Program-made: the position numbers and the translations under genes
From: Girardia tigrina
Lineage: Eukaryota
Length of the DNA: 52,690 nt
Assembly: GCA_001938485.1 (NCBI GenBank)
Contig: MQRK01183776.1
Span: 75,592-128,281, forward strand
Direction: 5' to 3'
Shown: positions 1-14,069 of the stretch, one piece after another
Position numbering within the stretch: position 1 is the first letter of the stretch
How the letters are laid out: every line of letters begins with the position of its first letter
Notes under the pieces: model-generated
Databases searched by the model: none
What the model saw: the letters and a program-made list of their open reading frames with translations, nothing else
Told to the model about the DNA's origin: nothing

Positions 1-639
1 CCAGGAAGAAAATGTCAAAATGTTTGAAAAAGTGATAATCAGTAGGCGAGAGGTAAGCTGAGTATGGTGGATTACTCAAAGTTTCGTAACCAAGTTTGTT
101 CAACAGTCGCATTGTCAGACGTGGCAACGGTAAACCCCCTGAAGGGAGGTGGGACAGAACTTTCATCTTTCCCCTATTAATTGGAGATTCCGAATTCTAA
201 TTTCATTTTTTTTAATGCAAATCTGAAACAATTATCTTTTACATCCCGTTCAGAGGACGCTTACCTGAGATGGATTAGACTTTCAAATAGACATCTAAAT
301 GCGCAAGCATACCTTGTAAAAACATATTTTCCTAAATACAAAATGGTCTTCATAATAGCTTCCAAAATCTAGAAAATAAAATAACGAATTAAATAATTTA
401 AAAGTATATTAACAATTACACTAACCGTCATCTGACTTGTCCTGGATTAGCAGGTTTGCAGACCTAAAAGAAAATTCACCTCGAGTTAGCAGACTGTAAT
501 CATAAAAATAATAGAACGTGAATAATCATGAATCACTTACTTACATGATGTATTCAAGTTGTGAGACTAATATAGAAAGCTAACGATATCAACACAACAC
601 TTTGTATTTAGAACAAGCATGAGAAATAGGCATCATTTC

Positions 640-900
640 TCAAAATAATTTCCTTGTGCCTAGACATATTTTTTCCAACGAATGAGGTTTTGAAGGTGTA
701 TTTGAAGAATTCTTGAGGATTTTCTCCAGTCGTTTCTACTTATCCTCTGACATCCATTTGTAATCCATTTGCTGCAGTCAATTTCTGATTTGTTTGTTCC
801 ATCCTTATGTTATTTATTTTTTTTAATATTCCTTCCGTCATAACATTCAACGCTGCTCCCGTGTCCAGTTTCTATGTTTTCCAATCTATACTCGGTGGGC
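640..900 (-). mobile_element. Ty3/gypsy aspartic protease remnant (start of pol)
   Basis: Minus-strand translation KLDTGAALNVMTEGILKKINNIRMEQTNQKLTAANGLQMDVRG* contains the retropepsin DTGA motif and the downstream A-A-N-G flap; in-frame stops are present. Confidence 0.75.
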
Positions 901-1057
901 CTTGTAATTGGAATATTTTCACAATTATTTTAAACACACCCAATGAAATTACATTCACAACGTGACCCAATTGGTCAATTCAAATTGAAATGAAACAAAA
1001 TTCATTTGAAATGTGAATTTAATTCACACTAAAAAAATTGTTAATTTGTTTAACTGA

Positions 1058-1070
1058 GTTGCCTAGCAAC
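1058..1070 (+). promoter_or_regulatory. RFX X-box motif (GTTGCCTAGCAAC), followed by a TATA-like element and an ATG at 1104
   Basis: Near-perfect palindromic X-box; TATATAA at about 1092; decayed coding-like sequence downstream. Confidence 0.45.
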
Positions 1071-1288
1071 TCAAGGCCAACGTTTTGAATTTATATAATT
1101 TGAATGTCTCTGAAAATTGATTCAACACAGAAAGATTTTAAAGATAAAGAGTTTGTTTGATAAAGACATAACAGACGAAGAACTTTGGTTGGAAAATTGA
1201 GATCATAAAAATTTAAATGAGACAGATCGACTCATAAAGCGGCAATCATCACAAAACCATATGAAAGTGATGATCATATACATTTATT

Positions 1289-1298
1289 TATATATATA

Positions 1299-1338
<40 letters not shown>
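1289..1338. repeat. (TA)n microsatellite
   Basis: Seen directly. Confidence 0.95.
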
Positions 1339-1342
<4 letters not shown>

Positions 1343-1539
1343 ATTATTTAATTCAATTAAATCTTATTTAATTTTTTATTTCTTTTTTATTTTAATTACT
1401 TATTTAATTATTTAATTTTATTTTTATTAGTTTAATTAATTTTTTTTATTTAAATTACAAATAAAAGGTTTAAGGCTATCGCAGCGCGACCACTATATAT
1501 AATTTATATGATCTGGTTCATGCCTATGAAAACTTACTC

Positions 1540-2621
1540 CAATGCCCAGATCGGGTCCTCGTCGTCTTGGCACGATTCGTTTTTTTCTGTATGTTCTCGT
1601 TCTTCTCGGTTATTCTTCCTTCTCCATCATGACGATCTGTCTTCCTCTTTCGAATCCATTTCTATAGTCGTCTGAGTTCCGGTTTCCTAAGCTTTTCGTT
1701 TGTGCATTTGAGAATTGTCGGCTATCTCTTTAGGTTCTCCTTTGATAATTCGTTCTTCCTTGATATCGTATATTCAAATTCGTGTAACATTCATCAGCTC
1801 TATGTCCTGGATTGTTACATCTTCAACATCTTACCTTCCTGCATTCGCGTCGCACGTGACCTTTGCCTCTACATACATGGCATGTGATCTTCCTCTGACG
1901 TTTACAATCGTGACTTTTATGTCCTCCTTCCTTACAGTTCCAACATGTGATGTGTTTCTGCATAGAAGATTGTCTTCCAAAAGAATCTCCTTTCTTCGTC
2001 ATGTTTCTTGTTGTCATTTCCATTGTTGGGCCTGCTTTGACCACATCTCTATATGTTGGTCGTATTGCGTGCACCGGCTTTTCCATTCTCCGGATTTCGC
2101 CTCCTTTCTTAATGACGTCCTTCACTTCTGTTAATTCTTTCACTTCTCTAAATCTGATTTCTTTCTTCACGTCACTATCTTTTTATGTGTGGATTAGAAG
2201 GCCTTTCTCTAGCTCCTTCTCTGTCCACTCATGTCTTATCAATTTTGCCGCCAACTTTTTGCTTTTACGAAGAATTCATCCACTGATTCTCGAGATCTCT
2301 CGAAGTTTACCGCCACTATCAAATTTTTCATTAACGTATTTTTCGTCTGAAAAGCTTGTCGACACGGGCTTCCTATCCCTTCACTTCGGGACCCATGCTT
2401 TCGTATTTTGGTATGAGTTCATGTGACAGTAAACCAATTACCAATATTTCTTGCATACTTTCCGATACTTTTGCCACTTTGAAGTATCTTGCACAAGCCG
2501 AAATGAATGTTTCCACATTATCTTGTAGCCTAAACTTGTCTGGTATGAGTCTCGAAACTATTTGTTCGGAGTTGCTGGCGATGGTCGACATGTTGGGTTC
2601 TTGATTAATAGAAGAAGTCAT
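1540..2621 (-). mobile_element. gag: Ty3/gypsy gag remnant
   Basis: ORFs 2373-2621 (IPDKFRLQDNVETFISACARYF) and 1823-2170 with two CCHC knuckles (CWNCKEGGHKSHDC, CHVCRGKGHVRREC); broken by stops and frameshifts. Confidence 0.85.
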
Positions 2622-2728
2622 TAACGCAAAACTTTATCTCTTACAAACAATTTTTTAAACAAATTTTTGAGGAACAATGTTTCATTTTTAGCACAATCAG
2701 ATATCCTATTTAAAATATAAATATTGAT

Positions 2729-3965
2729 TAGGGTGGTCGCAAGAAATCGATGTTGGAATTTCTCTGACGGGAACCCCTTAAAAGTTGTCAATTGGTATAA
2801 AAATGAGAATGTGAAATTTTCAGCTCGATCGGATAAGGTTAAGACCTGCCTCATCAGCCCTAAAGTATTAAAATCAACTGTTTTTTTTAATTGAGGATTT
2901 TCCGCTATAAAATTACATCGGCCTATCATTGGAACTTCTTATTATAGTGTAGTGTAGTGTACATGTACGTATAGGTGTCCATATTTGAAAGAAGAAAAAA
3001 TAAATTTTCTATTGATCGTTATTCCATTGAATTGTGAGCCTTTTAACAATGAGTCAACCCGACAAAAAATGTCACCCACACAAACTACATTTAACTGACT
3101 TTTAATTACAAGCAGGTGTTCGAGTGCGCCTTCAATGTAGGCCCTACACATAGAGTATGTCAAAAATGGTCTTTGTGAGTGAGTGTCTTAGCATGAGACT
3201 GTCTTTAATGTTAGACGACAGGAGCAAGTGTGGGAGCGCTTTTTACTAGGATTTCTCGGAAATGAGTGTACTGAATAACCGTTCCTACACGTATATAAGG
3301 CTTGTTTGTTCAAGGGTATGTCATTTTCTGTTCATTCCATTGCATTATTAGATGAGTGTTTCCATCAGCATTTATATGTAGTTAACATATGGTAGTTATA
3401 TGACTAAACATATTTTTATTGTTCGTTCAATTCTTTACAGTGCACCACATCAAAGTAATGTTTCAATATAAGTTTTTAATATTAAATTTTGGTTTTTTAG
3501 AGATGTAATAATGAAATCACAACCTTCAACATCGTTGTTTACAGCTACAATGTGTGTCAGTTCCAGGCAAAAAGACAAGATTTTTCTGATTGGATGTATG
3601 TCCCATCAAATTACTGGCAGTAAGTTGCAATCCAATGGACAAGTTTTACGCAGTTTTTTTACAATAAACGCCAAGTTAAACTAGAAACCAGAGATGCTGC
3701 AAGGCTCACAATCCAGGAAGTTCTTCTTTTTTTGACAGAAAGCTACACTGAAATTAAAAATAAATGTGGATGATCTCGACCAGATGTTTAGTTTTCTTTC
3801 AGATCAAATACAAAAAACTACGGCATCAGCCCAGAGAAGATTATAACGAATTTTTACAGTTGTGTTTGATTTTTTTTAGGCCGTGTTGCCCCAGGAAACA
3901 TTTCGTTTAGTGCGCCAGGTGCCATGAATAACGGTAGGTAGATGGCAAAAGTCATTTTCTACAAA
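2729..3965 (+). mobile_element. hAT-superfamily (hATm-like) transposon remnant with internal deletion
   Basis: Terminus TAGGGTGGTCGC at 2729; decayed peptides IFLIGCMSHQITGSKLQSNGQVLR..ETRDAARLTIQEVLLF (~3580-3740) and FSAPGAMNNGR*MAKVIF (~3900-3960) resemble the PGAxHHARWMAK motif of this family. Confidence 0.55.
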
Positions 3966-4315
3966 TCAGTCTCATGAAACGGAAAGTAATTCTCATATTT
4001 GCTATTATTGTAGAAAAGTGGGACACATTCGACGCGACTGCCCGGAAATAAACAAGGATGTCGGGGTGCCGGACATATCCGGAACGATTGTCCATATACA
4101 AAATGTTGAGTTTGTAATAATCATGGAAATTTAGGATACCAGTGCTTTCAGAGGTCGACAACATACAGCCCACGCTGGAATCAAGGACAAAGTCGATACA
4201 AACCCCAGGACCGATACATACGAGAAGTCGCTGGTTTAGATGACAACGAGGAATCCTGATCGGTGACAGACGGGCCACAAAATTCGGAGGCCCCATCAAC
4301 ACAAGAGATGGTGAG
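3965..4315 (+). mobile_element. gag: Ty3/gypsy gag C-terminal remnant with multiple zinc knuckles
   Basis: Plus-strand ICYYCRKVGHIRRDC, then after a frameshift GCRGAGHIRNDC and C*VCNNHGNLGYQC, followed by an acidic gag tail (REVAGLDDNEES..EAPSTQEMV). Confidence 0.75.
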
Positions 4316-4829
4316 ATATGTTCGGCCATATGTTCGGGATTCGAACATTTTAATTATTATTTTGTTTTTTTAAATTAATTATTATCATTATTATATATTC
4401 GTTTCAAATTGCAGAAAATCAAATCAAATTGAAATGGAAAATGAATTCATTATTTTTTGTCATTTGAAATTATTCGATGGAAATTGAGCAATTTTAATTG
4501 TAATTTTGAATATTTAGTAATTGAAAATTGATAGTGTGAAATGACCTTGAGTTTTGTTTTGCTGAATTAAATTGATGAACTTGTAAAAATGATTGTTATT
4601 TTGATTGATGAAAATAAATTCGATATCGTTTTGAATTGATAATAGAGTGAATTTCTTTTCTGGATGGTGAATTATGCTAATCGCGATGTTAAAAGAGACC
4701 GCAAATATTAAAATTACAAAAACATTGAATGATACGATTTTTGATGCGTCGATTCTTCTCGTCGATATTATCAAACTCGAATCGATTTTAGATCGAAATT
4801 TGAATAGAAATAATCATAATTAAACGGCA

Positions 4830-4927
4830 CAGTGTTTCTGTGTGATCGGTGAATAGAGAATTGTTCCAATAAGATTGGTTTTTACAAAGCGAAATGTGAA
4901 TCAATCAATTCGAAAATCAATAATGAA
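4830..4927. promoter_or_regulatory. Putative bidirectional promoter with opposed CCAAT boxes
   Basis: TTCCAATAAGATTGGT (~4864-4879) lies between the plus-strand ATG at 4928 and a minus-strand coding-like stretch at 4514-4817. Confidence 0.3.
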
Positions 4928-5520
4928 ATGGATAAAGTATTCTGTGAAAGATTCGAAAGATTTAATGACAATTCAAATTCGATGAGCGTTAATTTTCAAA
5001 CGCTTCATCCATTCAAACCGTCATCGACTAATTGCACGAAAAACATCCGATATAATGCAATCAATTGTCTGGCCGGATTACTGGCGCCGGTCACCGGCAA
5101 CAATGTGGATTTCTGCAGTGTCTCCTCGTGCGAAAGAGCGAGTATTGAATCGGTCGACTTGAGGGACGGGCTCGTGAGTGTCGATCCGATTTTCTCTATC
5201 AAATTCCGGTTGAGTGTCATGTGGATCGAGTTCAGTTGCGGTGGATCGATTCTGTTGGTCGCCTTGGTGACCGATGATGGTCGATTGGCGATTTTCGGGT
5301 TGTTCCGTGTCGAGAGATCACTGCTGGAGAGTGGAGAATCGATTTTTTGTAAATATAAACTGAATATCGAGAGCCAGTTGGTCGATTTGCGGTGGTATCC
5401 AAATGGGAAAGAGTCGTTTGGGTGGTTTTGAACGATACGGTCTCATTGTGTTGTGTGAAAGAAAACAAAATCGATATTATAAATTAGTGTTTTGTGTATC
5501 CTGGAGTCCGAAGGGATTTG
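4928..5520 (+). pseudogene. 5' fragment of a Nup214-like nucleoporin (N-terminal beta-propeller), frameshifted and truncated
   Basis: ORF 4928-5431 matches recalled Nup214 spacing: F-x14-A-x5-GL, EFSC (LALSC), FCKYKL (FAYHKL), LVDLRWYP (VIDMKWNP). It continues in shifted frames as VVLNDTVSL and CVSWSPKG (Nup214 VCWSPKG). Confidence 0.6.
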
Positions 5521-5899
5521 TCATTAATCAGTAGGACAATTTGATGAATGAAAAGCGCTCGAGTTTGATGAAAGACATTATTGACTCTCTCAGAGCATCT
5601 CTATGGGCCCAGATGCTCCTTTCCTCCGGAAAATTCGGAAACAGCATAAACTAAGTATTACGAATATTTTCGATCCATTTATATGTAATAGTAGTATCTG
5701 TAATTGTATTTATTATAATTTTAATAATATTTATGATATTTATAATAAAAATAATAAGTAAAATAATAACATTGTTATAAGTGGTAAAAGTATTGCAACA
5801 ATAGAGAACAATGGATATGTTAACCGAGCGCAGGATGATGAACGTCATGTAGTAGAGTTAATTATACACTCCAAGGGGTATTTCGATTATCAAGTTTTT

Positions 5900-7690
5900 A
5901 ATTGAAGACCCAGTATATCGACTAAAATTGGCGGGTATGAAGTATACAGTTTATTAGACACAAGTTTATTAATTTATTAGTTTATTAACGTATTAGATAT
6001 GAAGATTGCCGAAAAATCTCAAATTCCTGTAGATAATAAGCTGTTAACCTCAGTAGTATGTGCGATTTGAAGTGGCATGGATATATTAAAGACGTGTAAA
6101 ATAAAAAAGGTTTGGGGACGTATGCAAATATATACTGTATTTTATGTAGCAAAGAAGTTGTTTTCATCTGTTATTTTCGGTATGAATTTAATTAGTGCTT
6201 TAGGAATTGAGCTGAAATGTAAGGGCACAACGTTGGGGGAGCTATAAGACATAGTGAATAGATCTAATTTGGAAATTTGTGCTTCAGATCCTTATGTAGG
6301 AAAATTCAAATATTCGAAGACAGATTTATATAAATGTGTGGAAAAATATAAAGATATATTCATGGTCGGTAAATGAGATATCGGGAAAACGATGTTGGTC
6401 GAACATCAGATTAAAACTACAGGGGAACCAAGATCAGAAACCCAGGCGCCAACCGGCTCATTTGGACAGACATATTGAAGAAACCTTACAAAATTTGAAA
6501 CAACATGGAATAATAAAGAGATGCTCTTCCCCGTGGAACGCACCAATGATTTGTGTTTGGAAGAAGGAAAAGAAAGAAATTCGCTTATGTCTAGATTTTT
6601 TCAGACTGTTAAATCAAGTTACTGAGAGTTCAGCATTCCCAATGCCAAATATCAAACAGATGTTGGATGCTTTGAAAGGTACAAAGTGGTTCAGTTCGGT
6701 TGATTTAGGAAGCGCTTACTATCAGGTATGGTTGGAGGAAAATGCGAAACTGAAAACTGCATTTTCATGCAAGACGGGTAAGTTTTGTTTTAGGCGAATG
6801 CCATTTGACAGAGCCGTCGCTACAGCAACATTTCAGAAGTTGATGACTGACGTTTTTGGAGATATGTTGTGGACATTAGTGTACTTGGACGACATCCTTA
6901 TTTTTCTGTAACAGAAACCCAACATCTGGAGAGACTGGATAAAGTTTTCTCAAGAATTCAAGCAGCAGGGCTTCGAATAAACCCTAAAAAATATAAATTA
7001 TTTCAAAGATAACTGAAGTTTTTTTGGGACATATTGTGAACAAAGACGGTGTTAAAAGAGACCCAGAAAAGATCAGAGCGATTCAAGATTTTGAGCGACC
7101 TAAATGCGTGAAGAAATTATGGAGTTTCTTGTGACAATGCATCTACTACAGAAAGTTCATTTAACAGTATTCGAAATTATCCAAACCGTTGGAGGAGATG
7201 TGCGGTAGCAAGAAAATACGCTGTATTGGTCCGAACCACATACGGAGGCGTTTAAAAATTGATGAAATCACTAATTCGACCCGGGTGTTATGTTATCCTG
7301 ATCTCAAAAGACAATTTATTTTATACACGAATGCATCATTTGATACTATTGGAGCTATCTTATCACAAATAAATGATATAGCTGAAGAGGAGATGGTTGC
7401 ATATGGGTCAAAGTCGATGTCAAAACACGAAATGGGTACTATTTCACTCGGAAAGAATTATGGGCGATTTTCAATTTTACACAACATTTCCAACATTACC
7501 TATATGGTGAAAGTTTTAAGCTGAGGACCGATCACATAGCGATAGAATACACGATGACCACGAAGAAACCCATAATACCACAATTCCATAACTGGATTAA
7601 CTATTTGAGTAGCCTGGATATGGTGTTAGAATACAGGAAAGACATATTGCATCAAAACGCGGATGTACTCTCAAGAAAAAATTGTCAAAC
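5900..7690 (+). mobile_element. pol: Ty3/gypsy pol remnant (protease-RT-RNaseH), decayed
   Basis: RPSISTKIGGYEVYSLLDT (~5905); RT motifs SSPWNAP, IRLCLDF, VDLGSAYYQV, KTAF, RMPF, VYLDDI; RNaseH motifs LYTNAS..IGAILSQ, RTDH, NADVLSR; many frameshifts. Confidence 0.92.
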
Positions 7691-7924
7691 GAGGGAATCT
7701 GGTTTAACATTATTCATTTATTTTTATGTTTTTTAACAATAGTAAAAAAAGCGAATTTGTAAAAATCATAAAATCCATTATTTTTACAGTTACCATAGCA
7801 ACGCTAACCAAGGGACGTTTTTCATTAACAATGGATACAGTGATTCAAGGCGGTTGTAACCATGGTAATGTTTACCATATCCATAGCAACCGCGACCATT
7901 TCCTTAGCAACCGAAGAAAAAAGT

Positions 7925-8400
7925 TCTAATCGATTGCTGCACAGTGTCCAGATGTTCTAATCGATAGTGCACATTGTGCCGCACATTTCTAATGTGCTGT
8001 ACATGTGCTAATCTGTACTGCACATGTGCTAATCAATAATGCACATGTGCAAATCAATACTTCACATGTGTAAGTGTGTAAAATCAATAAGGTAATAAGA
8101 TATCGAAAATCTGTCTGAACACGTGAAACTGTAGGGAGAAACCCATAGATTAATAGTCGGAATATGATCTTAGATTTTTGAAGAAACGTACACTAATCGA
8201 TTAGTGGGATGTTGTGTTTTATAGTGTAAAGTAAGGGAGAACTCTCATAGGCAAAAGGTGAAGAAAGCAAAATATGAAAAATCTGTTTGAATACATGGAT
8301 AGTAAACTCATATAAGAATAGTCAGATTCTATATCAACATTTTTGAAAAAAAATCGATACCTTTTCCGAATATATGCACATTATGTATGCAAATATTATA
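7925..8400 (+). repeat. Left arm of long inverted repeat with GCACATGTGCTAATCAATAAT-type tandem units
   Basis: 8094-8400 is the reverse complement of ~10985-11298 with scattered mismatches; the ~21-bp tandem units are mirrored at 11340-11470. Confidence 0.85.
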
Positions 8401-8599
8401 TTATAGATATGTATTATATTATGATATTATACTATGTTATCAACCAATATCGTATCAACCATTCAAAACGTGGCCGTATCCAAGGTGATATCGTCATGCT
8501 TCCATCATGTCAATGTATTGCATTCATCGTGTCAGTGCACAGTTGAACATGTAAAAATACAGAAAATACTGAATAATATGTAAAATACTAAAAGAACTA

Positions 8600-8830
8600 C
8601 TTTATCAACCATTACCATCATACTATCAACTATTAACTATCCGATAAACCTTATCAAACGTACCATTAACCATCATATTTACCATATGAAACATCAAAAT
8701 TACATTAACAACTATATCATCAACCATCACATTTACCTCAACAACCATCAAAATTGACATATCAACCATCAAAATACCTTACAAGCCATATCATAAACCA
8801 TCAAATATACTTTATCAATCATTAAAAGTA
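8600..8830. repeat. Degenerate AACCATCA-rich minisatellite
   Basis: Many AACCAT(C/T)A units seen directly. Confidence 0.6.
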
Positions 8831-9129
8831 GTAAATGATTATGGTCAACATATTAATACTATGGATATATATATATATGAATATGAGCGATATAGTCTGT
8901 TACATGATAGAAAAATGTACAATTGTGTAATCATTCAATCTTTTCCTTGAATGTGATGTTTTCTGTTATGTAAATCAATATATTGCTAGAGATAATTATA
9001 CTATAAGGCACGTATCTTCATCATTGAAAATATGGTAACCGGATGAAACAGCAAAGGAAAAAACAACACAAAGAAATAACAGCACAATTAATATAACTAG
9101 CATTTATTGATGAATTTTGTATTGCATTT

Positions 9130-9650
9130 TGACATGTTACTCACTGCAAATTAGCCATCCTTCGCAAATACTTCAACTTGTCTTCTTCAGCTTGGTATCC
9201 TTGAGTTGCAGCAGCAACATGTTGATGGAGTAGCTGGTACTTCTTCTTCAAGATCTCTGGTTGACCATCCTGTGCTTTTATCAATATCAGCTTCCTGTTA
9301 GCCATGTCAATCTCAAGACCAGAAAAGAGAGACCAGACACTTGGATGACTGCCGTGGAAGATGGCATTAAGCGAATTATGAACGCCTTCACAGCAGTTTG
9401 TTGTCTTTGGTGATTGTTCATCAGCAGCTTCATAGTGATTCCAGATACTGTTGGGAAATTGTGGCTCTCAACCTGCTGCACCTTCAACGTAAGTAGAAAA
9501 GAAGTAGGTAATGATATCATTGTAGCTTTCCTCATCTAGAAATTTGGTTGCAAGTGTATCGAACACAGCTCTCACTTCTTGCATTGGTACAAATGCTAAG
9601 ACAGGCAATGATTTTAGCATCCACTTGACTTCAATATCAGATTCAAACTC
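9130..9650 (-). mobile_element. MULE (Mutator-like) transposase C-terminal fragment
   Basis: LPVLAFVPMQEV..YFFSTYVEG..WNHY..KTTNCCEGVHNSLN..HPSVW; clearly the same family as 22205-23560. Confidence 0.8.
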
Positions 9651-9789
9651 GATTCGTGAACAAAAAACATACCTACACACTTTGATCTTGACACTGAGCG
9701 TTTTAAATTTTTTAAAAAAAATATCATTTTGATATTCAATCTAATCATTGACGAAAGTCAATTTATTGCGAAGTTAATTCCAATTGAAA

Positions 9790-10985
9790 ATGGTTTTGTC
9801 AACGGAGAAGAGAATATTTTTGATTGGGCATGTCTTTCGTTCGAATGATGAATACACATAAGCAGTGAAGGAAAAATTTGCCGAAAAGTTTTCCGAAACA
9901 GCAATACCTCATCGAAATGCAGTTCGAGTGTTAGTGAACAAGTTCAGAGAAACTGGATCCGTTCATGATGCCTCCCGCTCAGGTCGACCAACGATTTTAA
10001 CGGAGCAAAAAGTCCATGTTATTTCGAAAGCCATGAGCCAGAGTCTAACAAAGCCAATGCGCCGTTTATCTCAAGAAGTGAGTGTATCCGTTGGAACTGC
10101 ACATGCCGCCGTGAGGAAAACTTTAAGCTTATATCCATATCATGTTACTTGTCAACATGAATTGAAAGACATAGACTTTGAAAAGCGACTCCAGTTTTGT
10201 CATTGGTTCAAGGAAAATCTGAATGAGGATGACATCCTCGACAAGACTTTTTTTCCGGTGAAGCGTGGTTTCATTTGTCTGGATATGTGAGTAGCCAAAA
10301 TTCTCGAGTTTGGTCCAGTGAAAATCCGCATGAATTTGTTGAGAAGCCTCTCGATTCCTTGAAAGTTGGAGTATGGTGTGTCATGTCCAGGAGGTGTGTA
10401 ATTGGTCACATCTTTTTTACTGAAACCATAACATCAGAAAGGTACTGCAAGGAAATCCTTTCTGCTTTCATCGACCAGTTAACTAAAGAAGAACGATCGA
10501 CTGGCTATTTTCAGCAGGATGGTGCAACAGCACATACCGCAAACATTTCGCTTCGTTTTTTGAATGAGATCTTCCCGAAGAGAATAATTTCCAAAGGAAT
10601 TTGGCCGCCAAGATCCCCAGATCTAAGTGTTTTGGACTTTTACCCGTGGGGAGCGATAAAGCAAAAGGTTTACCGAAACAAACAACAAACTTTGCAAGAC
10701 CTATGTGATAACATCCTACACCAAATTAAAGCCATCACCCAAGAGGAAATTCATCGAGTGTTCGAAAACTTGACACGTCGAATTAACGTTTGTATTCACG
10801 AACTTGGTGGGCATTTCCAGCAGTTGTTGTGACTCTTTTCTTGTTATTTTTAATAAATTAAGAGACGGTCATTGTTCTTCACATAAAATTGACTATTCAA
10901 AATATTTTGTTATTGATTTTTAGAACACAGGATATCGTTCTTGTTTTGAAATTGCAGGTGCACAGTTACTTTTTGAACGCACTGT
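9790..10985 (+). mobile_element. Tc1/mariner rosa-like (DD38D) element; transposase pseudogene 9790-10832, right TIR ending 10985
   Basis: N-terminal HTH, GRP, EAWFHL (frameshifted), FQQDGATAH, WPPRSPDLSVLDF; TIR CACAGTTACTTTTTGAACGCACTG followed by TA; left TIR not seen. Confidence 0.88.
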
Positions 10986-11470
10986 ATAATATTTGCACAT
11001 ATAATGTGCATATATTTGGAAAAGCACTAGGTATCGATTTTTTTCAAAAATGTTGATATTGAATCTGACTATTCATATATGAGTTTACTATCCATGTGTT
11101 CAAACAGATTTTTCATATTTTGCTTTCTTCACCTTTTGTCTATGAAAGTTCTCCCTCGCTTTAAACTATAAAACACAACATCCCACTAATCGATTAGTGT
11201 ACGTTTCTTCAAAAATCTAAGATCATATTCTGACTATTAATCTAAGGGTTTCTCCCAATGGTTTAATGCTTTCAGACAGATTTCCGATATTTTATTATCT
11301 GCGACCTCTGCGTAGCTCTATTATATAGAAAACATAAATATAGTACACTTTGTACAATTGTGAACTTATAGATTTTACACACTTTGCACAATTGTGAACT
11401 TATTGATTTTACACACTTGCACATGTGCATTATTGATTAGCACATGTGCATTATTGATTAGCATATGTGC
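10985..11470 (-). repeat. Right arm of long inverted repeat
   Basis: Reverse complement of 7925-8400. Confidence 0.85.
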
Positions 11471-12796
11471 AGTCTAGGTAGCACAAGAGCAGACGAGTGT
11501 AGTATTGATTTTTGCACTTTTTTGTGTAATTTTATATTTTATTTTATTTTTTTAACAGAAATAAATACAATGTATTTTCATATTACACCGGCGACGATTA
11601 ATCAGGGATCAACCGCCGTGATGATCAACTCGATAATCCTGTTCAAATCATTTATATTTGGATTACTGACAATAATCTGCTTAACCAAGGATTTGATGGT
11701 CGGAAAAACTTCTTGGGCACGCTGGTACAAATCTATTTGATGACCTTCCAGGATTTGTGTCTAATAGTCATTTGAAAGATGATTGCGTTTGCTCTAATTT
11801 GGCCAAATCTCTCTGGTTGGTAACACTGGACGACAGCCAACTGCTAATGTCAAGACATTTGGTTGAAATGAGTAATAAATTACCCGCCTTAATCCTACTT
11901 CCATGGGCTCATAGTTTAGTGACATGTTTATTGAGACCGGAAGGTAAAAATGTGTTGGGGTTTTAATTATTAAAAATTATCTTTAATTCAATTATTCACT
12001 TTTTAAAACACAAATCTTAAATCTTTATCTTTAATCGTAAATCTCTTTTCTTATTTCTTTAATCAATAATCTTTAATCAATAATTCTCAATCAATAATNN
12101 NNNNNNNNNNNNNNNNACTCCAATTATTCAGAAAGGTCTTCCAACATAAATATATGAATAATGAACACAAATTCTTTTATCAAACTTTATTTCAAATAAC
12201 AAATATCAACAAGTCACAAATAATAATAATAATTCAATTCTTTGATGACAGAATACAAATACAATCAATATTACGTGCGAGTTAACAGATTACAGTAAAA
12301 ACTGTGAATCTCCCAAAATGAACGATGCTTTGATTTAAACTTAAAACTTTTCTATAAACCTTGTTCTCCCATACAGGGTACTACAGGTTGTATTCAACTT
12401 TGAAAAGTATAAAGTAAATATTAATAATAACTCTACTTACGAACAATTNNNNNNNNNNNNNNNNNNNNNNNNNNNNNNNNNNNNNNNNNNNNNNNNNNNN
12501 NNNNNNNNNNNNNNNNNNNNNNNNNNNNNNNNNNNNNNNNNNNNNNNNNNNNNNNNNNNNNNNNNNNNNNNNNNNNNNNNNNNNNNNNNNNNNNNNNNNN
12601 NNNNNTTTTAATTCCAAGTTTTGTTAAACTAAATATTATTTTATTTGAAGTTAATAATTTTACTAAAAGAATTATTTAAAAATTTCCTATATAAAATTTT
12701 ATCAAAAGTGTTCACATGTATTTTTTCAGAACCCTAACAAATGTAGTGTCGATGCTGATTCGATTAGCAAAAAAAGTGGTTTGCATTTGGCACTTT

Positions 12797-14011
12797 TCAT
12801 ACTGTTACTGATTTTACTGTTGTTCGATACTGAAATCGTTTTTTTAGTTGATGTCTGATCGGTAGTTGATAGTTGATAGTTGATAGTAGGTTTCCCATGA
12901 CAAAATTCGTTTGAGGTTGGCTTTTGAAAGGAATAGATTCTGACAATAGTTCAAAACTATCTCCTTTAAATGAATAGCGAATCAATCTTTTGGCAATTAT
13001 GTCTTGATATTTTTCTATCCTTGTAAGACTTTGATACTGATCATTTGATATCAAGACGCCGCCTGTTGCTTTAACGATATCAAAAATTAAATTGGTGAAA
13101 CTAGGAGCTTCTCTGGCGTTATTGATTTTTCTAGACGGTGTGTATTTTAGATGATTAGAATCTGTCAATGTCTGAAATATTTTTTTCCCAAACCATTGCC
13201 GATGTCGCGGCAAGAGGGCATAGACTTCAGAATATCCTCGATGGATGAAAAAATCCACAGCAATTTTAATTCCAATACAACTAAAGGATCTTCCTTTTCC
13301 GTGTCCATTAGCGATATTTTCTCCATCAATAATTATTGTTTTATAATCACATGGATGTTCCAGAGAAACATTGAGAGCCAGCGTCTCTTGGTCAGAGCTG
13401 CAGCGCCAGTCACTTAAAGTGCCGTCAGTGGTGCATTGATGGTCATCTGTTTCATTCTTTGCCGTCACTATCGGTAGAGTAGTCATCAACTCGGCGCGGT
13501 CTTTCAATACTAAATAGATGAAAACCTTGCTTCTCACAGAAGACAAATATCTCCAGTCAATAGATATTTTGAGATCATGACACAGCCGCCTCAATTTCAA
13601 TTCTTTCTTTTCTGAAAAATCAAAATCGATATTTTTATCAACTATTCGGTTGTAATGAAAAAAGTAGTCATTGACGCGAGAAGTATCGTTCACACTGCTG
13701 TAAATATTAAGAAAATCGCCATCAATCGTCATCAGAACATTGCAGTTCGTCTCAAAGAAATATCGAACAGTATTTATTCTCAGAGCTTCTTTTGAATGTT
13801 GATTTAGGGATAATTTGAAGTGACTGTCAAATTTATTGAAATAATCAACTTTTTTTTGACAAAGAATTAATTCCGATTGTTTTCCGGATATAATTATATC
13901 AGAATGATCGATTCTAATTGACACTTGGAATCGATTTTCGAGATGTCGTTTTAAGGCGTTTCGTAGAATTAAATTCGGACAATTTACAGTGATTGGTTCG
14001 TTAGATGCCAT
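12797..14011 (-). CDS. KH-like repeats + NYN/RNase_Zc3h12a (PIN-like) domain protein, KHNYN/N4BP1-like, intronless, 404 aa
   Basis: Intact ATG-to-stop ORF. IIIDGENIANGHG..FSCIGIKIAVDFFIHRG..YTPSRKIN..GGVLISNDQY..RLIRYSF matches the Regnase-1/N4BP1 NYN domain. The N-terminus has 2-3 degenerate KH-like helix-strand-strand-helix units (e.g. LKRHLENRFQVSIRIDHSDIIISG). Confidence 0.85.
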   Translation of the reverse strand: MASNEPITVNCPNLILRNALKRHLENRFQVSIRIDHSDIIISGKQSELILCQKKVDYFNKFDSHFKLSLNQHSKEALRINTVRYFFETNCNVLMTIDGDFLNIYSSVNDTSRVNDYFFHYNRIVDKNIDFDFSEKKELKLRRLCHDLKISIDWRYLSSVRSKVFIYLVLKDRAELMTTLPIVTAKNETDDHQCTTDGTLSDWRCSSDQETLALNVSLEHPCDYKTIIIDGENIANGHGKGRSFSCIGIKIAVDFFIHRGYSEVYALLPRHRQWFGKKIFQTLTDSNHLKYTPSRKINNAREAPSFTNLIFDIVKATGGVLISNDQYQSLTRIEKYQDIIAKRLIRYSFKGDSFELLSESIPFKSQPQTNFVMGNLLSTINYQLPIRHQLKKRFQYRTTVKSVTV

Positions 14012-14069
14012 TCGGGAAGATTTATTAATACACTAATTAATGAATTCAAATTTTTAATAATAAAATATA

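Follow-up and report, generated by a model that had tools for sequence, protein, structure and literature searches.

Spliced host mRNA pieces in the long terminal repeats of two BEL/Pao retrotransposon families of Girardia tigrina and their probable translation into ubiquitin-Gag

Two remnants of gypsy retrotransposons lie head-to-head near the start of a 52,690-bp stretch of the Girardia tigrina genome (GCA_001938485.1, contig MQRK01183776.1, positions 75,592 to 128,281; hereafter the window), gypsy A at 730-2838 on the minus strand and gypsy B at 3954-7690 on the plus strand. Both are interrupted between gag and protease by DNA that resembles the beginning of host genes, and the question arises what this DNA is and how it came to lie there. 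A preliminary description of the window took the gypsies themselves to have captured host promoter and first-exon DNA at this junction. Searches of the fragmented assembly (1.43 Gb in 255,254 contigs) revealed that the gap pattern consists of two nested insertions, ordinary as such. On the sequence evidence the inserts are long terminal repeats (LTRs) of two BEL/Pao families; they carry host mRNA that was probably acquired by template switching and is probably translated into a following ubiquitin-Gag.

The remnants were correctly recognised in the preliminary description. Gypsy A displays zinc knuckles (1826-2182, minus strand; Pfam zf-CCHC, E 2e-7) and gypsy B matches to zf-CCHC (3928-4131), RVT_1 (6300-6908) and RNase H (7165-7733), all on the plus strand. 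Each is indeed broken close to its gag/pol boundary, and gag and pol belong to one family in both cases, as both halves were matched within one locus in 15 relatives of gypsy B and eight relatives of gypsy A. The gaps are real, but their limits lie at 927-1492 and 4331-5643 rather than at about 900/1540 and 4315/5900; the stretch 5644-5905, formerly counted to gap B, is gypsy B's own linker and is seen in its relatives. The first 9000 positions of the window contain no N.

A genome search with positions 3900-6400 gave 2243 first-look candidates, 40 of which were scored, and matches outside the window were nearly all confined to 4331-5643. Twenty loci of this repeat, here called B-type, were fetched. 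In 17 of them both ends are present, and each of these copies has a 5-bp target duplication (12 exact, five with one mismatch including the window copy); most have the termini TGTT...AACA. Among 19 relatives of gypsy B (four without the gag side), the 15 with both sides visible are all empty, with a single CCATA-type site and no B-type repeat in the gag-pol linker. Because the repeat has its own ends and a target duplication, and because the site is empty in the relatives, gap B is an insertion into gypsy B. At the left LTR junction (4314-4337) about 12 bp are tandemly duplicated in the window, giving an offset of -13 relative to the empty sites. The B-type LTR begins with an AT-rich part in which nine of nine shared indels shift the frame, as for non-coding DNA. 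A reading frame follows, composed of about 85 codons of unassigned coding-like sequence, a Nup214-like mRNA piece and a short tail that determines in which frame the primer-binding site (PBS) is entered; it is open for 316-328 codons in two copies (L009, L013). The CCAAT at 4866, once read as part of a promoter, falls within this frame (ATG at 4674).

Gap A holds part of a second repeat, the A-type LTR. A search with 560-1800 yielded 40 scored matches, of which 12 cover the insert alone and 27 the gypsy gag end alone. The insert is present in none of these 27 gypsy A relatives, and in 15 of them the protease follows about 190-230 bp beyond the gag end. The window copy begins sharply at 1492 with TGGT, and its 3' part is missing together with about 190 bp of the gypsy linker; 3 bp (AAT) are common to the junction. 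Whole copies elsewhere measure 1.9-2.4 kb, end with CAACA and show a 5-bp duplication in five of six cases. The X-box and the TATA-like element (at 1092) described for gap A both exist. The ATG with a decayed coding stretch reported there is antisense to the LTR, and the frame meets a stop within about 20 codons in 11 of 11 copies.

The parent elements were recognised at other loci. Behind some B-type repeats, a PBS is followed by a shared internal region with a fragment from the middle of HSP90, ubiquitin and a DUF1759 Gag, and further on by Pao peptidase A17 and integrase; in L132/L135 the domains PF03564 (E 1e-18), PF05380 (E 2e-12) and PF17921 (integrase zinc finger) appear in this order. 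We counted 26 distinct B-type LTR-PBS junctions and 27 of the A pattern. In two loci (L144, L181) a polypurine tract (PPT) precedes the 3' LTR of the B-type; none was seen before an A-type 3' LTR. A-type 5' LTRs outside the window are followed by the same PBS, ubiquitin and a Gag 28% identical to that of the B-type (E 3e-37), with a protease-side pol match; no reverse transcriptase (RT) or integrase was seen for this family. LTRs with a CCT1 piece are flanked by 5-bp duplications too. These features identify both repeats, at the level of sequence, as LTRs of two BEL/Pao families. The PBS is complementary to 14 genomic sites, one of which has a CAT anticodon loop and a CCA end, and the likely primer is initiator tRNA-Met; ARAGORN and Rfam made no call on these partial tRNA copies.

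Most of the LTR length is spliced host mRNA, and sister LTRs carry other cargos ahead of the same tail. Before the B-type tail, with its shared PBS and internal region, we found Nup214-like, PSMD5-like, LRR, HSP90 N-terminal (a weak match), CCT1 and unassigned pieces. Pfam matches in A-type LTRs indicate an LSM12-like AD domain, SH3, DHDDS, folate receptor and Nop. The Nup214-like 5' end previously noticed in gap B is likely right: PF16755 (Nup159/214 propeller) was matched in four of 11 scans of the open reading frame and its copies, below threshold (best E 3.4e-5, 23.7 bits against a cut-off of 29.6), and a multi-exon host gene matches the cargo. The window's own truncated frame gave no PF16755 match, nor did any of five host exons. 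A single-sequence fold of this cargo (pLDDT 42) gave no fold match, and PDB sequence searches gave no result for naming. Protein collections returned one LTR-like protein, a representative library two, and an Atlas search produced weak propeller leads for the B-type cargo and nothing for the A-type cargo. The A-type cargo may resemble Vps33, a likeness that no tool supports.

Several further captures were encountered. HSP90 has been taken up more than once, as N-terminal pieces in LTRs of both families and as the middle piece before the B-type ubiquitin (L126, L128, L294, L105). In L302, L335 and L343 the DHDDS cargo extends over almost the entire coding region and breaks off a few codons short of the host stop. 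In L236 (1185-1721) and L239 the PBS is immediately followed, in frame, by a COP9 subunit 3-like piece, and thus capture occurs inside the element as well. In L243 (1352-2101) and L240, serpin coding sequence (PF00079, E 6e-15) continues in frame behind a solo LTR; this could be a fusion gene of LTR and host, or an LTR that inserted into a serpin.

Comparison with the host genes indicates the molecule from which the cargo was taken. Host-gene searches with the PF16755 family and other patterns missed the Nup214-like gene (one pattern had 27 matches, all of them LTR copies); it was located on C237622 by way of sequence that extends beyond the cargo in RNA-like contigs. Its 2187-bp GT-AG intron is absent from the window copy (junction after 5496) and from 46 LTR copies, with the exons joined exactly, and a 3630-bp intron is absent from a longer cargo variant. 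This variant exits mid-exon at a 7-nt word common to the exon and the LTR tip, which marks one switch point. The CCT1 gene was also found: 24 of 25 loci lack its 72-bp coding intron (the remaining locus has no match there), and a 59-bp intron of the 5' untranslated region (UTR) is absent in the aligned copy L170. The DHDDS piece of an A-type LTR lacks a 51-bp intron; the family search for DHDDS gave 170 genome matches, mostly uninspected. Because introns are missing in the cargo from all three host genes found, capture was from RNA and not from DNA as had been proposed. Promoter capture was checked for CCT1 only, since the contig does not reach the promoter and first exons of the Nup214-like gene; similarity to CCT1 stops 19 nt into the 5' UTR exon and the promoter has no match. 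DNA-level capture of the Pack-TIR or Helitron kind was rejected, as the cargo from the three host genes retains no introns, that from CCT1 no promoter DNA, and the ends are LTR termini with target duplications.

The frame of the LTR continues across the PBS into ubiquitin and then Gag in both families, and each family crosses the same PBS sequence in a frame of its own. Natural open frames that span LTR, PBS, ubiquitin and Gag reach 574 amino acids (aa) in L132 and 373 aa in L284; open frames of 644-1545 aa were rejected as artefacts of assembly gaps. Indels of at least 3 bp in the linker between LTR and ubiquitin are multiples of three in 10 of 13 cases in the B-type (16 copies) and in six of seven in the A-type (10 copies). 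Together 16 of 20 keep the frame (p=2.5e-5 against an expectation of 1/3), compared with three of 10 private indels in the reading frames of solo LTRs, which served as control. Of 12 A-type copies, 11 have ubiquitin in the LTR frame, at five linker lengths. Six of eight homology-defined classes of cargo junction are in frame (p=0.02), and so are the commonest cargo lengths (Nup214-like, 28 of 41 copies; CCT1, eight of 11). Within the first 20 codons after the B-type LTR we counted three stops in the LTR frame versus 25 and 13 in the others. Ubiquitin changes common to at least four copies are synonymous in 23 and non-synonymous in eight cases, similar to Gag, which denotes purifying selection. 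Of 34 distinct copies, 29 have a ubiquitin that ends with Gly-Gly-Met; the residue ahead of Gly-Gly is Q, K, N or I. As far as sequence can tell, this pattern fits a cargo that must stay open while its residues matter little, and a ubiquitin that matters. The LTR and the HSP90/ubiquitin part are both represented among assembled contigs from runs that we take to be RNA, for the most part from other organisms; no piece spans the PBS linker, and contig depth cannot show expression.

The nesting, the LTR identity, the loss of introns, the many cargos on one tail, the frame-keeping indels and the conserved ubiquitin are the observations on which the following mechanism is built. We consider it probable that BEL/Pao LTRs, nested here in dead gypsies, acquire spliced mRNA cargo by template switching and have it translated into ubiquitin-Gag, with a predicted release by deubiquitinase. 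During minus-strand strong-stop synthesis, RT would copy 10-90 nt of the LTR tip, switch at a short shared word to a co-packaged mRNA and copy towards its 5' end; a return into the 3' LTR would then provide both new LTRs with the piece, and repeated rounds would generate mosaics. Transcription would begin upstream of the cargo, in the AT-rich start of the LTR, and translation inside the LTR. Judging by the indels, captures would persist mainly if the frame stays open into Gag. A host deubiquitinase is predicted to cut after the Gly-Gly of ubiquitin and to leave the same Gag N-terminus whatever lies upstream, and the cargo slot would therefore be cheap to change. Recombination between LTRs would leave solo LTRs and thereby scatter host-gene fragments by the hundreds or more. 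A more far-reaching reading, which is possible but short of probable, is that this BEL/Pao clade keeps its LTR as a slot in which the 5' ends of host mRNAs can be exchanged, with ubiquitin acting as the release linker for all of them, in effect a natural ubiquitin-fusion system. Swapping itself may even be favoured, either because a largely renewed LTR would be protected from small-RNA silencing or because housekeeping UTRs and start codons are borrowed.

A number of observations weigh against this mechanism. Ubiquitin is in the LTR frame in only six of 16 B-type copies (p=0.45); the breaks are mostly homopolymer slips of 1-2 bp in the AT-rich linker, and three breaks are common to two copies each. 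The two classes of cargo that do not stand in frame are the long Nup214 variant (L063/L071) and HSP90 (L126). The Nup214-like cargo is under weak selection (shared changes have a pN/pS of about 0.57, versus 0.6-0.9 in the other frames) and none was detected on CCT1 cargo, and the name Nup214 rests on Pfam matches below the curated cut-off. The canonical ubiquitin end is LRLRGG, whereas the copies here end with LRLQGG, LRLKGG or LRLNGG, and the changed residue before Gly-Gly might impair cleavage. Repeated exchange with host polyubiquitin mRNA could explain part of the synonymous excess. Transcription start, translation and cleavage are all predictions from sequence. In the fragmented assembly we found no element that is intact over its full length, with both LTRs and a target duplication, and the 5' and 3' LTRs of the L132/L133 element (G000:C206773) share only their last 90 bp (98.9%); its 3' LTR bears a PSMD5-like piece, and the mismatch reflects either truncation or a capture intermediate.

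Several of these points are also what one would expect under the main rival, which we regard as unlikely: the same nested LTRs and RNA capture, with cargo and linker untranslated, Gag starting from its own Met, and open frame and ubiquitin being relics or having another use such as the avoidance of nonsense-mediated decay. The low proportion of B-type copies in frame, the weak or absent selection on cargo residues and the changed ubiquitin residue 74 all suit it, as does the Met that follows Gly-Gly in every intact copy. For relics one would, however, not expect 16 of 20 larger indels to be multiples of three, stops after the LTR to be avoided in that one frame, or ubiquitin to be conserved as strongly as Gag. 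Less likely again is 5' transduction, to which we assign a low probability and for which SVA 5' transductions are a precedent. Here the host promoter would drive transcription of an element cut down to its LTR tip within a host gene, and reverse transcription would act on the resulting spliced read-through RNA. This would likewise yield spliced 5' ends without promoter, and the 5' LTR of C206773 is cut to 90 bp and lies in unrelated AT-rich DNA. Yet the observed switch is mid-exon at a shared 7-nt word and not at splice sites, the fetched parts of the three host genes contain no element, and the cargos stem from housekeeping genes, in which exonic insertions would be costly; the AT-rich 5' part of the element would moreover not be restored without a second switch.

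Two other explanations concern the place of the inserts in the gypsies. BEL/Pao integration, or the survival of insertions, might favour the AT-rich gag-pol linker of gypsies: the two cases adjoin in the window, a B-type LTR lies in the protease of a related gypsy (L004), and unrelated inserts occur in the linker of L033, L039 and L157. We give this only a slight chance, as two of 49 distinct LTR ends fall in the gypsy gag-protease region, one being the window's own, so that one of 48 remains besides it; the other linker inserts come from unrelated families, and the window had been chosen for this very pattern. The inserts in or near the linkers of L039, L033 and L157 are an unrelated solo LTR of about 700 bp with an AATAT duplication, an element that we take to be mariner-like and a 1.3-kb element with inverted ends, respectively. 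Most improbable of all is the original proposal that gypsy elements capture host promoter and first-exon DNA at a recurrent site at their gag/pol junction. Both window elements are broken there with inserts in the orientation of the element, an X-box is present in gap A, and L004 could be counted as a further case. Against this, the inserts have termini and target duplications of their own and occur genome-wide, the sites of the relatives are empty, and introns are absent; for gap B the proposal is refuted. Its core, that LTR elements carry 5' pieces of host genes, was sound, but the carriers are BEL/Pao LTRs that inserted into gypsies and the pieces were not taken up as DNA. The double insertion in the window looks like chance in a densely nested genome.

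Table 1. Features of the interrupted gypsy pair (window positions)
Feature	Position	Strand	Basis
Gypsy A: last part of the gag-pol linker plus protease remnant; several small deletions, truncated near 730	730..926	-	79-89% to A relatives
First 566 bp of the second BEL/Pao LTR (A-type, 1.9-2.4 kb when whole), as assigned from sequence	927..1492	-	dispersed copies; sharp TGGT start
X-box-like palindrome within the AT-rich 5' part of the A-type LTR	1058..1070	.	consensus kept in 4/11 copies
Gypsy A gag and leader remnant	1493..2838	-	zf-CCHC; matches of A relatives
Gypsy B gag 3' end	3954..4325	+	zf-CCHC; 72-86% to 15 relatives
Left target-site duplication CCATA; single copy in the empty site of relatives	4326..4330	+	
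Solo LTR, BEL/Pao B-type as assigned from sequence, 1313 bp, TGTT...AACA	4331..5643	+	dispersed copies; target duplication; PBS/PPT in other copies
AT-rich 5' part of the B-type LTR, 343 bp, 22% GC; likely U3/promoter	4331..4673	+	
Reading frame within the LTR, 40% GC; in the window copy interrupted by small indels and stops	4674..5643	+	
Match to two host exons (gene on G000:C237622); junction after 5496, 2187-bp GT-AG intron absent	5335..5578	+	
Right target-site duplication GCATA, one mismatch	5644..5648	+	
Gypsy B's own AT-rich gag-pol linker	5649..5905	+	found in relatives
Gypsy B pol remnant: protease, RT, RNase H	5906..7690	+	domain matches; B relatives

Elsewhere in the window, an intact single-exon frame of 411 aa on the minus strand (12797-14032) encodes a Zc3h12a-like NYN ribonuclease domain (E 4e-28), and long inverted arms (8017-11473; 92% over 263 bp) surround a DDE_3 transposase remnant at 9862-10832. 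Upstream of the window (L073:7039-7362 and 532-840) lie an exon presumably resembling selenoprotein O and what we take to be a kinase fragment.

If the proposed mechanism is true, a retrotransposon can live with host sequence being captured again and again in its LTR, perhaps even to its profit, and ubiquitin-Gag gains a testable role. It would account for the many starts of host genes strewn over the genome, by which annotation, copy-number estimates and RNAi design in this animal would be misled; on the exchangeable-slot reading, the by-product would be a genome filled with promoter-equipped fragments of essential genes. Small RNAs that target these LTRs would match the mRNAs of essential host genes too; small-RNA data that already exist could serve to test for this conflict.

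Parts of this architecture are known from other systems. The Ty1 LTR contributes only a few gag codons and is not known to carry host cargo, whereas the LTR here supplies up to about 330 codons of host origin. A frame that can cross the PBS is common to both; Ty1 has a 53-nt 5' UTR and its tRNA-iMet binding region lies inside the gag-coding domain (PMC5454406). In cytopathic pestiviruses, captured ubiquitin within the polyprotein is described as a processing signal cut by host ubiquitin hydrolases, by which the next protein likewise obtains a proper N-terminus (PMC8310069). Those are sporadic variants of RNA viruses, whereas the ubiquitin here is fixed in two distant families, has diverged from that of the host, and its cleavage is predicted.

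With the Belpaoviridae (PMC8742986; PMC3118150), the Girardia elements share two LTRs, PBS, PPT, Gag followed by protease, RT, RNase H and integrase, and Pao-type domains. According to the profile of the International Committee on Taxonomy of Viruses, BEL/Pao LTRs are typically non-coding and 0.2-1.2 kb long, and the primer is typically tRNA-Arg or -Gly (PMC8742986); these traits do not define the family. Here, in contrast, LTRs of 0.75-2.4 kb consist mostly of coding sequence, priming is probably by initiator tRNA-Met, and ubiquitin stands before Gag. The word ubiquitin occurs zero times in the main text of PMC3118150, and in the portions relevant here neither this paper nor PMC8742986 gives a coding LTR or ubiquitin for BEL/Pao.

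The closest known process is the formation of LTR-mediated retrocopies, in which pieces of host mRNA are joined to LTR retrotransposons by template switching (Tan et al. 2016, PMC5131818). Spliced and truncated mRNA pieces are common to both, and further rounds of copying probably are too; the short shared words at the joints of those retrocopies have a counterpart here in the 7-nt word at one Nup214-like junction. One BEL case, in mosquito, is among those retrocopies, and Ty and maize Bs1 are cited (PMC5131818). The retrocopies described there are internal and retrotransposon-flanked, and their loci behave as non-autonomous elements. In Girardia the cargo lies inside the LTR rather than between LTRs, with internal pieces in addition (the HSP90 middle piece and the COP9-like piece after the PBS); it makes up most of the LTR, is swapped before a fixed tail, is spread as solo LTRs and is in frame with Gag. 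In the literature searched, to which Repbase/Dfam notes and subscription papers did not belong, we found no description of this LTR-cargo-ubiquitin-Gag architecture; the supplements of PMC5131818 and PMC3118150 may list cases. Template-switch capture, ubiquitin as a processing signal and a PBS within gag are thus known, and the LTR-housed, swappable cargo with ubiquitin-Gag represents a new variant of LTR-mediated mRNA capture.

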